Positions 1,250-13,059 of a DNA stretch of 64,000 nucleotides are shown here, in pieces. The DNA lies in NCBI GenBank assembly GCA_034530875.2, contig JAVRCJ020000005.1, positions 32,001 through 96,000 on the forward strand, in the 5' to 3' direction. Position 1 is the stretch's first letter. Each line of letters starts with the position of its first letter. Origin of the DNA: Nostoc sp. DedSLP01. GTDB taxonomy: Bacteria > Cyanobacteriota > Cyanobacteriia > Cyanobacteriales > Nostocaceae. The translations under genes and the position numbers were made by a program. The notes under the pieces are model-generated. The model did no database searches. It saw only the letters and a program-made list of their open reading frames with translations, and had not been told where the DNA came from.

Positions 1250-2056
1250 ATGCACAGCTTTATTCCACCAGAACGCTTTTTCCCTTATCTGAGTTGGACT
1301 GACATTGAGGCAATGCCAGATAAAGAAAATGCGGTCATCATCCAACCAGTAGGGGCAATAGAACAACATGGCCCCCATCTGCCGTTAATTGTAGATGCTG
1401 CTATTGGTGTGGGAGTACTGGGGAAAGCATTGGAACAGCTCGACGCCAGTATTCCGGCTTATGCTTTGCCAACGCTTTATTATGGGAAATCTAACGAACA
1501 CTGGCACTTTCCCGGTACGATTACTCTCAGTACCCAAACTCTGACGGCAATTATTATGGAAGTGGGAGAAAGTATTTACCGTGCTGGGTTTAGAAAATTG
1601 GTGTTAATGAACTCCCACGGCGGACAACCCCAAGTCATGCAAATGGCAGCGCGGGATTTACATGTCAAATATGATGACTTTTTAGTATTTCCCTTATTTA
1701 CTTGGCGCGTGCCTAATATTACTAAGGAATTATTAACGCCAAAGGAAGCAACGCTAGGAATGCACGCTGGAGATGCAGAAACTAGCATTATGTTATCGAT
1801 TTTGCCAGAACAAGTAAAACTAGAAAAAGCTGTTGCAGAGTATCCGCCAGAACAATCGGAAACTAGTTTGTTGAGTTTAGAGGGGAAGTTACCTGTAGCT
1901 TGGGTAACGCGAGATATCAGTAAAAGTGGGGTGATTGGCGACGCCACAACGGCAACTAAAGAAAAAGGCGATCGCATTCTCGAATCTGTCGCTAACGGTT
2001 GGGTACAAGTGATTCAAGAAATTTACGCTTTTCAACAACCAAGAGTTAAAAGTTAA
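1250..2056 (+). CDS. Creatininase/creatinine amidohydrolase family protein
   Basis: Motifs PVGAIEQHGPHLP, SNEHWHFPGT, NSHGGQ, HAGDAETS. Confidence 0.9.
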   Translation: MHSFIPPERFFPYLSWTDIEAMPDKENAVIIQPVGAIEQHGPHLPLIVDAAIGVGVLGKALEQLDASIPAYALPTLYYGKSNEHWHFPGTITLSTQTLTAIIMEVGESIYRAGFRKLVLMNSHGGQPQVMQMAARDLHVKYDDFLVFPLFTWRVPNITKELLTPKEATLGMHAGDAETSIMLSILPEQVKLEKAVAEYPPEQSETSLLSLEGKLPVAWVTRDISKSGVIGDATTATKEKGDRILESVANGWVQVIQEIYAFQQPRVKS

Positions 2057-10030: not shown

Positions 10031-10828
10031 TTAGTCTCCAGTTTCTTGGAGGAACACTTCTCGAATACGGCTTGATGATAGTAGTTGTTTAGTAGCTAGC
10101 CATATAAATAGTGGAATAGTCTTAGAATAGCGACCAAAAAGCCTGCGTGGTTCTTGAATCCATCGATATAGCCATTCCAGTCCTAAGTCTCGAATTATCC
10201 GGGGTGCGCGTTTGTGAATTCCTGCATAAACTGGGAAAACTCCACCGAGTCCAATCATCACAGCTTGTATTTTGCCCTTATGTTGAGCTATCCAATTCTC
10301 TTGTTTTGGACATCCCAGAGACACTAAAACAGCGTTAGCACCACTAGAGTTGATCTTTTTAATCAAAGCTTCATCTTCACTTTCAGTCAAAGGACGAAAG
10401 GGTAGAGGTTCCATAGCGGCAATCTTGATTTGAGGAAATTCTCGCTGTAACCTTTCTTCCATCCGAGCCAGAATTTCTGTTTGAGAACCTAAAAAGAAGA
10501 TACTAATATTTTGTGTTTGAGTTAACTGACACAATGCTAGAAAAATATCCATTCCCGCTACACGGTCTTGATAGCGCGCTCCCATTTTCCGCATCATCCA
10601 TACAAGCGGCATACCATCAGGAGTAACTATGTCTGCATTACGCAATACGCTAGCAAACCTTGGATCCCAATGAGCTTCAATCAACATGTGTACATTTGCT
10701 ACATATACACTCCTACTCTCACGTCTAGTTGCCCACTTGAGTATTGTTTGTATTTGCTCGTTAAAGCGTAAAGCCGTGATAGGAAAATCGAGCACTTTTT
10801 GAGTAGGTAGAAGCACTTTTGCCACCAT
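10031..10828 (-). CDS. WecB/TagA/CpsF family glycosyltransferase
   Basis: ANVHM, PDGMPLVW, RVAGMD, VSLGCPKQE, GLEWLYRWIQEPRRL; CAGGAG RBS before ATG at 10828. Confidence 0.92.
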   Translation of the reverse strand: MVAKVLLPTQKVLDFPITALRFNEQIQTILKWATRRESRSVYVANVHMLIEAHWDPRFASVLRNADIVTPDGMPLVWMMRKMGARYQDRVAGMDIFLALCQLTQTQNISIFFLGSQTEILARMEERLQREFPQIKIAAMEPLPFRPLTESEDEALIKKINSSGANAVLVSLGCPKQENWIAQHKGKIQAVMIGLGGVFPVYAGIHKRAPRIIRDLGLEWLYRWIQEPRRLFGRYSKTIPLFIWLATKQLLSSSRIREVFLQETGD

Positions 10829-11327
10829 AAATAACTCCTGTGTCCAAGAAAAGAATCCATAGATTACCCACACAATTCCTGAATATTTCACAATTCAGGT
10901 TTAGATAACTCCTAGCCTTTTGTAGGCTTGTGTCATCGTTGGAGGTTAACACATGGAGGTGCAATTGCCTTCTCAGTACACTTTTAGCTTTCTCCGTAAT
11001 ACTAGAATTATTTGCTATTGTGTTTTAGTTTACTGGTTTAACCAAGTGATTTCAGAAGCTGTCTGGCAAAATTCATACTTCCTTCATAATTAATTTTTAA
11101 TTCATTCATCCAAGCATTACAATTACGATAAATTCCTATATATTATTTTCAATATTACGTAATATTTGCTACAATCAAAAATTTTGAAGTCAAGATAATT
11201 GCCTGATAGTTACTTTGATGGTTGTGGTATCTAAATATATACTTAAGGGCTGCGATCGCAATTATTATTTTTTCAAAAATAAACTAATAATTAATTTTTT
11301 ATAATTTTTTTGGCATGTCATTATAGC

Positions 11328-11585
11328 TCAAATTCCAGTTCTGTTTTGTATTAAAAAATGCATAATTTTTATTTGTTGTTGCAAGTAAAAGCTAAAAAAT
11401 AAGGGGAAGATAATCTTATCTTCCCCCGGTCTGTTATTTTTGTTATCGTCTGATTTGTTGTTTTCGTTAAGCCTTTGCCGTAACATTTGTCTTTGTTTTT
11501 TGAGTTGCCTCTTTCTGGCGGAACCGCCTCTACCTTTATCGTTTCTACCTTCTCTTCGGGGAGATTCCCATCGTTTGAGTCGCAT
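11328..11585 (-). CDS. Small Lys/Arg-rich protein with an intrinsic terminator inside its ORF (candidate ArfA/BrfA-like ribosome rescue factor)
   Basis: Basic N-terminal 39 aa containing KGRGGSARKR; own promoter; hairpin plus U-tract at codons 53-64. Confidence 0.6.
   Translation of the reverse strand: MRLKRWESPRREGRNDKGRGGSARKRQLKKQRQMLRQRLNENNKSDDNKNNRPGEDKIIFPLFFSFYLQQQIKIMHFLIQNRTGI
11394..11426 (-). terminator. Intrinsic terminator located within the 11328-11585 ORF
   Basis: Minus strand GGGGAAGATA-AGAT-TATCTTCCCC (perfect 10-bp stem) followed by TTATTTTTT. Confidence 0.8.
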
Positions 11586-11626
11586 AGTTTTTGGTTTTTT
11601 GTAGTGAGTATTTTGTTTTGAGCGAC

Positions 11627-11655
11627 ATTCTACCCTATATGGTCTAATATGGCAA
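11627..11655 (-). promoter_or_regulatory. Sigma70-type promoter for the small basic ORF
   Basis: Minus strand TTGCCA (11655-11650), 17-nt spacer, TAGAAT (11632-11627). Confidence 0.65.
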
Positions 11656-11767
11656 CTAATAAAATTGCTTAATTAGCAGAGTAATATCAACTATTACATA
11701 GTATAACACAAATTTTCCGGTAATTTATTCTGTGGAATCAAGCGATCGCCTCGTGGATAGACAGCGT

Positions 11768-12343
11768 TTAACTCAAAATTTGTGCTAAATCCAATACAAA
11801 CCCAGGCAATATATCCTCTCCCGATAAACTAGCAGGCGATTGCAGAATCTCAACATCTTGTTCTGGGCGGTAAATTTCTACACGTTGATTTTGGGGATCG
11901 ATTAACCAGCCCAAACGCACGCCGTTGTTAATATATTCCCGCATTTTTTCTTGCACAGTTCTTAAGCTATCAGAAGCAGAGCGTAATTCCACCGTAAAAT
12001 CGGGAGCCATTGGTAAGAATTTATCGGGGTCTGGATTTAAGGCTTCTAATCGCTTCCGGCTCACCCAAGACGCATCAGGAGATCTATTTGCACCATTCGG
12101 AAGTTTGAAACCAGTAGAAGAGTCAAAAGCCAGCCCTGTACCATCAGCATCAGTCCAATTGCCTAAGCGCTGTGTCAGTCTACTATTGCGATTTCCGCTT
12201 TCCCATCCTGTTGGTGGCATGATAATTAATTCTCCCTCTGCGGTGCGCTCAAGTCGCAAATCTCGATTATTCTGACACAGTTGGAAGAATTGCTCATCTG
12301 TGAGTTCAATGGTGGGATATAAATTGAGAATCAGGGCAGTCAT
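11768..12343 (-). CDS. Uma2 family (DUF820) putative endonuclease
   Basis: ERTAEGELIIMPP, RSPDASWV, PDFTVELRS, GVRLGWLIDP. Confidence 0.92.
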   Translation of the reverse strand: MTALILNLYPTIELTDEQFFQLCQNNRDLRLERTAEGELIIMPPTGWESGNRNSRLTQRLGNWTDADGTGLAFDSSTGFKLPNGANRSPDASWVSRKRLEALNPDPDKFLPMAPDFTVELRSASDSLRTVQEKMREYINNGVRLGWLIDPQNQRVEIYRPEQDVEILQSPASLSGEDILPGFVLDLAQILS

Positions 12344-12513: not shown

Positions 12514-13059
12514 ATGCAAAATTGGCCTTCTTGGATTCCTACTCCCCGGTTTTGGGTTAATGCGATCGCTCTTATTCTATTAATAAATGGTTTACAACAT
12601 GCGTTCGCCTATCTGGGAATCATAATTATTCTGCTGATTAATTTTCTCCCCAAGTTTATTTTTGTCAAGTTAATCTATTTATTTAGTTTGGTAGCCCAAC
12701 TTTCTCCAATCCCAGCAGTGGCATTTGTTCATCATTGGCTGCATCGGTTTTTAGATCGCTTTTTCCCAGAAAGCAGAATACCCGAAACCGAATCAGCCCC
12801 AGGAGTTTTTCCAGGTTTGATAAGTTGGTGGGAAGGACTATATGGCTGGTTAGTGAATATTCTCTCAACAGTAATAGTATTTGGTATTTTAGGGCTTTTC
12901 TTGCCTTCTCCCGATCTATTTCATTTTTTAAATTTCTTTAAAGCTGAAGGCCCACCTGTGCTGACAATCTCGACATTATTTGAAGTAATTATTGCTGCTT
13001 ACCTGTATCAATTTGAGTATTTAGTACATCAGCATTTGATAGCAGCGGCTAGACAGTAA
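12514..13059 (+). CDS. Hypothetical membrane protein
   Basis: 181 aa with several hydrophobic segments. Confidence 0.7.
   Translation: MQNWPSWIPTPRFWVNAIALILLINGLQHAFAYLGIIIILLINFLPKFIFVKLIYLFSLVAQLSPIPAVAFVHHWLHRFLDRFFPESRIPETESAPGVFPGLISWWEGLYGWLVNILSTVIVFGILGLFLPSPDLFHFLNFFKAEGPPVLTISTLFEVIIAAYLYQFEYLVHQHLIAAARQ

Follow-up and report, generated by a model that had tools for sequence, protein, structure and literature searches.

A candidate tmRNA-gated ribosome rescue factor encoded by a stop-less gene in Nostoc sp. DedSLP01 and other cyanobacteria

Nostoc sp. DedSLP01 and many of its relatives carry a small gene in which an intrinsic transcription terminator lies inside the reading frame, so that the normal messenger RNA (mRNA) would have no stop codon. 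The gene is described here from the minus strand of a 64,000-nucleotide stretch of contig JAVRCJ020000005.1 (positions 32,001 to 96,000), called the window, whose coordinates are used throughout unless another locus is named. It encodes a strongly conserved basic head of about 42 residues followed by a variable linker that runs into the terminator, an organization that resembles that of the ribosome rescue factors ArfA and BrfA. Judged from sequence, a design in which the product is made from a non-stop mRNA and is gated by transfer-messenger RNA (tmRNA) is probable. The complete reading, in which the product also serves as a back-up ribosome rescue factor, draws on analogy and is given slightly less than an even chance. 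What appears to be new is a family unrelated in sequence to the known factors and far wider in range, with a predicted ArfA/BrfA-type switch and often wired to a transfer RNA (tRNA) gene.

The open reading frame (ORF) occupies 11585..11328 (minus), with ATG at 11585, TGA at 11330-11328 and 85 codons, and its translation is identical to that given in a preliminary description of this DNA. Codons 1-42 (MRLKRWESPRREGRNDKGRGGSARKRQLKKQRQMLRQRLNEN; 11460..11585, minus) form the conserved head, as delimited by alignment A1 and by codon-position differences, and contain a KGRGGS motif at codons 17-22 (11520..11537, minus) that stands out in column counts over 113 loci. The hydrophilic linker, approximately codons 43-52 (11428..11459, minus), is variable; its frame is open and its sequence is not conserved. 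The terminator inside the ORF (11394..11427, minus) consists of a hairpin at 11427-11402, with 11 pairs (5 G-C) and a loop of 4, and a T-tract at 11401-11394, TATTTTTT. The hairpin spans codons 53-64 with zero in-frame stops before it, in agreement with the preliminary description, and it belongs to the sole terminator-like site in the 1.2 kb between 10800 and 12000 (mean in shuffles 0.8). The 3' end of the mRNA is inferred to fall within the T-tract, which would give a stop-less product of about 64 residues. Codons 65-85 and the TGA (11328..11393, minus) would then form a read-through tail, and this tail is without coding selection.

The same layout has been found across the orthologs. A total of 120 loci were fetched, of which 115 were unique and 114 could be evaluated for stop versus terminator; L097 (genome G321) was excluded for lack of an assignable start codon, and L042 and L075 end at a contig edge. 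The terminator was defined as the first hairpin with a free energy of -9 kcal/mol or lower that has at least 5 T among the next 8 nucleotides (nt), a rule satisfied by 110 of the 114 real loci and by 4 of 342 mononucleotide shuffles. No in-frame stop occurs before or inside the in-ORF terminator in 111 of the 114 loci. In 101 loci the stem is followed by more than 20 nt before the first in-frame stop is reached; in seven the distance is 10-20 nt, and in two (L093 and L094) it is no more than 9 nt. An ordinary stop after 43-51 codons with the terminator not nearby is present in three loci (L039, L116 and L127), a weak T-tract hairpin with the stop far past it in one (L033), and one locus (L042) runs to the contig end. 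Between the end of the head and position +7 after the stem, the 110 loci that satisfy the rule contain a single stop in frame 0, compared with 32 in frame +1 and 234 in frame +2, and shuffled linkers remain open just 65% of the time per locus. Related loci are not independent of each other; as more than 25 families are represented, chance is excluded as the source of the stop-less design. The preliminary description had proposed that an in-ORF terminator would be kept with no stop upstream of it, and this is the state of all but three of the evaluable loci. Its converse, orthologs that generally stop before the hairpin, is confined to those three.

The comparison of the parts of the ORF leads to the same view. 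Linkers range from about 0 to 32 codons (median 11), and in 37 close relatives their differences at codon positions 1/2/3 are 0.232/0.133/0.301. The hairpins comprise 89 distinct sequences, many with fully changed stems (alignment A3), and end in all three phases (64/24/22), which indicates that an RNA structure has been preserved and not a peptide. Past the T-tract, codon-position differences in the 37 close relatives are 0.391/0.375/0.388, with many indels and no codon periodicity, while ORF lengths vary from 68 to 129 codons among close relatives of the genus and the stop positions are scattered. By these measures the ORF beyond the terminator is non-coding in any functional sense and the codons there are dispensable. 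Three lineages end the head with an ordinary stop at 43-51 residues, which suggests that the head alone suffices. One of these, the ortholog of genome G059 (L039:161-292, +), has its stop after 43 codons and no hairpin, and rimM (L039:306-833, +; Pfam RimM E = 2.7e-20) begins 13 nt after it. L111, from the same genus as G059, has the usual in-ORF terminator.

The head has the signature of a conserved protein. Pairwise differences at codon positions 1/2/3 are 0.216/0.121/0.501 over 113 loci and 0.057/0.040/0.267 in the 37 close relatives, and the 113 loci yield 92,382 synonymous versus 43,424 non-synonymous differing codon pairs. On this evidence the head is a functional protein core under strong purifying selection. 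Conservation is limited to about residues 1-42, as anticipated in the preliminary description, which had expected it for residues 1 to about 40 only. Invariant or near-invariant residues include K, W-E-S-P-R, G-R-N, K-G-x-G-G, A-R, Q and K-K. In the motif K-G-[RK]-G-G-[S] the counts, each of 113, are K 112, G 113, R/K 112, G 111, G 112 and S 101. The likeness of this motif to KGKGS of ArfA and the KKGGS-like segment of ArfT, proposed earlier from one sequence, has become firmer, since it is near-invariant in the 113 loci and since the ArfT paper confirms both motifs (PMC6299226). An AlphaFold2 model of the head predicts a coil for residues 1-20 and a basic helix for residues 21-44, with the motif at the junction and a mean predicted local distance difference test score of 74.6. 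The head is 42 residues long, lacks GGQ and bears KG[RK]GGS and the basic helix, and its likeness to rescue factors that depend on a release factor (RF) is compositional only. A model of the complex of RF2 and the head (RF2 alignment A2 of 11 rows with the N terminus trimmed; head alignment A1) scored 0.00 in a run without controls, a score that speaks neither for nor against binding. Searches with the ORF product gave zero families in Pfam (hmmscan, E up to 10) and zero matches in NCBIfam, and a phmmer search of all PDB chains (E up to 10) brought up nothing but two chains of aspartate-tRNA ligase, with E of about 7. The ESM Atlas returned solely the unnamed cyanobacterial clusters of the head family itself.

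A profile built on residues 1-45 (alignment A1) has been used to follow the head through 401 genomes sampled across Cyanobacteriota. It is present as a single copy in 114 of the 401 genomes and in 62 of 155 genera, and nine of these genomes belong to other orders within the class; one genome (G222) has an additional weak, partial second match. At the DNA level, sequence similar to the locus occurs in every one of 36 further genomes of the genus, and 14 of 24 genomes that represent other families of the order also have it. The profile matched 0 of 29 genomes of family f38, and a search for phage or plasmid copies found none. Large protein collections contain 985 matches at E <= 0.001, and among the matches listed (120 of 985) all are called 'hypothetical' except for stray labels. 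The profile matches 457 clusters (50% identity), in which the head stands at or close to the N terminus; the lengths called run from 62 to 172 residues, a spread that arises because gene callers pass the terminator and continue to a chance stop. A few called ORFs have an extension of 4-33 residues ahead of the head. One entry of 47 residues (P0122) is called from an internal Met, so that the entire conserved head is missing, and two head-family entries among the set P0122, P0013 and P0076 are labelled 'Transposase'; public annotation of the family is erratic.

In half of the orthologs the gene is joined to a tRNA. In 57 of the 115 unique loci the ORF is immediately preceded, on its own strand, by a gene for tRNA-Leu(CAA), at a median gap of 32 nt (range 21-240); in L048, for example, tRNA-Leu(CAA) occupies 1731-1815 (-) and the small ORF starts at 1692. 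The ortholog of Nostoc sp. PCC 7120 is outside the fetched loci and therefore outside this count. The linkage recurs in several families, and in other orders as well, and for this reason it probably represents the ancestral state. In the linked loci no terminator-like site comes between the tRNA and the in-ORF hairpin, and the in-frame terminator would then also close the tRNA transcription unit.

DedSLP01 has departed from this arrangement. Its tRNA-Leu(CAA) is separate from the ORF (C1:377688-377774, L162) with nothing behind it, and similarity to all 36 other genomes of the genus starts just 7 nt before the ATG, at 11592. A gene for a Uma2-family putative endonuclease now lies upstream (11768-12343, -; E = 3.1e-49). 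These comparisons indicate that the DNA was rearranged about 7 nt upstream of the start codon, which placed the Uma2-family gene and a promoter-like site in front of the ORF. The latter is a sigma-70-like match, TTGCCA-N17-TAGAAT (11655..11627, minus; TTGCCA at 11655-11650 and TAGAAT at 11632-11627), with 10/12 consensus matches, and is the best among 8 sites in 10800-12000 (mean in shuffles 4.6). The presumed 5' leader (11586..11620, minus) is A-rich, its transcription start being inferred. The near-consensus promoter reported in the preliminary description is therefore present, as is the stand-alone gene that it was said to drive. This arrangement is an oddity of DedSLP01, since the promoter-like site is particular to this genome and relatives differ upstream. 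Further upstream, a hydrophobic ORF of 181 residues (12514-13059, +) has no Pfam match and adjoins a cytochrome P450 gene (13160-14494, -).

The DedSLP01 genome encodes tmRNA with the tag ANNIVKFARREALVAA, SmpB, RF1 and RF2. A search of this genome for the Rho RNA-binding domain found none, so hairpin terminators are the expected means of ending transcripts. The ArfA family PF03889, searched over the whole genome, gave a best E of 0.7 to an unrelated frame of 420 residues elsewhere. Next to prfB, many Nostoc genomes also have a tandem gene for a second RF2-like protein, 47-56% identical. An intact copy (L137:2739-3779, -) has the PCRF and RF-1 domains and keeps SPF, with GGQ replaced, and the DedSLP01 copy (L132; G000:C5:131020-132039, outside the window) has an internal TGA. 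Judged by these features, the tandem gene is a catalytically dead release-factor paralog.

The following mechanism is proposed. Transcription would stop at the intrinsic terminator within the reading frame, and ribosomes would reach the 3' end of the mRNA and stall there. tmRNA-SmpB would then append the degradation tag and the product would be destroyed, so that the protein would build up only when trans-translation is saturated or failing. By analogy with ArfA and BrfA, the untagged protein would act as a back-up ribosome rescue factor, in which the KG[RK]GGS segment and the basic helix may probe the empty mRNA channel while the N-terminal segment recruits a release factor. The most specific form of this proposal is more tentative again: the family would be an independently evolved, RF-recruiting rescue factor of cyanobacteria's own, with a non-stop switch kept across orders, an ancestral co-transcription with tRNA-Leu(CAA), and the terminator of the tRNA unit serving as the sensor of tmRNA.

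The evidence for the stop-less design would fit equally well a tmRNA-gated product that is not an RF-dependent rescue factor, such as a translation brake, a hibernation-type factor or a regulator. The head has no sequence similarity to known rescue factors, the invariant WESPR and GRN point to a specific partner, not necessarily a release factor, and the genome already encodes ArfB and an RqcH-like protein. On the other side, the layout follows ArfA and ArfT in its order, with KGxGGS between a short N-terminal part and a basic tail, and to our knowledge ArfA and BrfA, the only characterized genes of this stop-less design, are both rescue factors. The BrfA paper itself cites ArfA as a parallel; ArfA, too, comes from an mRNA without a stop and is kept down by trans-translation (PMC6881298). 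Such a product other than a rescue factor is considered rather unlikely. Less probable by a clear step is an ordinary small basic protein, for which the hairpin would terminate poorly, the mRNA would keep the downstream stop, and the linker and the FPLFF-like end would be functional. Work in E. coli reports that a ribosome following close behind the polymerase suppresses in-ORF terminators, less so early in the coding region; in addition, a hydrophobic end rich in F, L and P is found in nearly all orthologs and the stop lies 20 nt or less from the stem in nine loci. The richness in F, L and P is explained by the codons of the 3' arm and the T-tract, which are C/T-rich. Against an ordinary protein also stand the lack of periodicity, frequent indels and scattered stops (68-129 codons) behind the T-tract; the occurrence of the hairpin in all three phases, by which the encoded peptide is not conserved; the three lineages that function with a head of 43-51 residues; the expectation of hairpin terminators where no Rho domain was found; and the position of the hairpin as the first terminator-like site behind the tRNA in linked loci.

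Two further explanations would remove the protein from the centre of the account. The ORF might be a leader peptide or attenuator of the downstream gene of the pyrBI type, as the pyrBI leader ORF is reported to contain its terminator, and a WecG/TagA/CpsF glycosyltransferase gene follows at 360-650 nt on the same strand in 33 Nostoc loci and in the window. Outside that Nostoc group the downstream gene varies: it falls into 39 clusters over 74 loci, and in 21 of the 74 the closest frame downstream runs on the other strand. This lack of conservation argues against a leader-peptide role. The 18 residues invariant across orders are likewise not normal for leader peptides, and the explanation is highly improbable. 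The locus might instead be a non-coding RNA, either a 3' trailer of tRNA-Leu or a small RNA (sRNA) with an incidental ORF. The segment from Nostoc sp. PCC 7120 has indeed been catalogued as a predicted sRNA (PMC4734099), and the predicted fold of the 246-nt transcript is somewhat more stable than that of shuffles (z = -2.4). The strong codon periodicity and the synonymous excess in the head, however, are those of a protein-coding gene and not of a non-coding RNA, RNAcode flags the PCC 7120 segment as coding (PMC4734099), and Rfam gave 5 weak matches, all far under threshold, with a best E of 1.8. Of the alternatives this one has the least to commend it and is scarcely credible.

Several observations weigh against the reading of the gene as a tmRNA-gated rescue factor. 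The ordinary stop in 3 of 114 loci means that gating is not obligatory, and the suppression of in-ORF terminators in E. coli, mentioned above, bears on the termination that the switch would need. A total of 16 RNA runs in 4 studies match the L048 locus, which comes from a closed genome, and all are stored as assembled contigs; in the four runs examined, contigs of 4.4-9.5 kb span the whole 1.2 kb, in an assembled form that is silent on 3' ends and expression level. The window leader is without the GAGAGG Shine-Dalgarno-like run present in the tRNA-linked orthologs. With regard to the rescue role, the DedSLP01 genome already contains an ArfB-like protein of 139 residues and an NFACT/RqcH-like protein. 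Alternation with ArfB was considered across the 401 genomes and rejected: a hand cross-tabulation gave 57 genomes with both, 57 with the candidate only, 13 with ArfB only and 274 with neither. Only about 16 residues precede the motif, fewer than in ArfA or BrfA. Finally, no sequence homology to BrfA was found by phmmer against PDB chains, no match to the ArfA model was obtained at the locus with Pfam at E up to 10, and there is no sequence similarity to ArfT, which comes from another phylum.

Part of the locus is already on record. Brenes-Alvarez et al. (2016) have listed the Nostoc sp. PCC 7120 ortholog in Table S3 as a predicted sRNA segment, 179863r-179662, with a mapped start site at 179863r, a terminator predicted by TransTermHP, a length of 201 nt, 42 homologs, 8 reads and the comment 'putative peptide according to RNAcode' (PMC4734099). 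Translation of the segment gives the same head, and the segment closes with a hairpin of the same kind. A search of the main text found no discussion of its peptide, the element discussed there being another one, ncl0160. Transcript and coding potential in PCC 7120 are accordingly on record, and neither the missing stop nor a link to trans-translation was found in that paper as far as seen. Literature searches for ArfA-, BrfA- or ArfT-type factors or non-stop genes in cyanobacteria found none, in line with the preliminary description, which knew of none described there. These searches likewise brought up no report of synthetic lethality or sickness between the head gene and loss of ssrA or smpB, and two peptide words from the head are absent from print.

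The proposal matters for the way in which rescue factors are thought to have arisen. ArfA is known from some beta- and gamma-proteobacteria, ArfT from some gamma-proteobacteria and BrfA from some Bacillaceae, and RF-dependent rescue factors are taken as late, lineage-specific inventions (PMC6881298). If the present reading is true, the cyanobacterial proteins would form a further, sequence-unrelated rescue family, by far the oldest and most widely distributed, and the use of a gene's own non-stop mRNA as a switch that senses failure of tmRNA would be both old and recurrent. It would also supply a testable missing component for translation quality control in cyanobacteria, where the subject has hardly been studied. 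The linkage to tRNA-Leu(CAA) is a new wiring for a stop-less gene.

Among the known systems, BrfA offers the closest parallel in gene design. The brfA gene of B. subtilis (YqkK; RF2-dependent) has been reported to have a Rho-independent terminator within an ORF of 71 codons, giving a product of about 62 residues that is SsrA-tagged and degraded and that accumulates only without trans-translation (PMC6881298). The cyanobacterial gene likewise has its terminator ahead of the stop, with 85 codons and a predicted product of about 64 residues; the codons past the terminator appear dispensable in both, and both proteins have a basic region suited to the empty mRNA channel. A structure of BrfA on the ribosome has been deposited. 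In BrfA, two helices at the N terminus are accompanied by a beta-strand that pairs with RF2, whereas the head is modelled as a coil of 20 residues and one helix. BrfA is limited to some Bacillaceae, while the cyanobacterial family extends across many families, and half of its members are tied to tRNA-Leu(CAA), unlike brfA. The truncation of arfA mRNA is mainly due to RNase III, which cuts a hairpin, whereas the present genes have a canonical terminator with a T-tract; ArfT is not known to be produced from a non-stop mRNA. With ArfA (PF03889; beta- and gamma-proteobacteria) the family would share the stop-less mRNA, a mature size that is comparable at 52-55 residues in ArfA, and a glycine-rich motif followed by basic residues, KGKGS in one case and KG[RK]GGS with its basic helix in the other, although far fewer residues precede the motif in the head. 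In ArfA, KGKGS binds the empty mRNA channel, and ArfT of Francisella, with 40 residues, bears KKGGSTNKK near its C terminus (PMC6299226). ArfT is a very small basic protein, similar in size to the head of 42 residues, and in all three the motif stands between a short N-terminal part and a basic tail.
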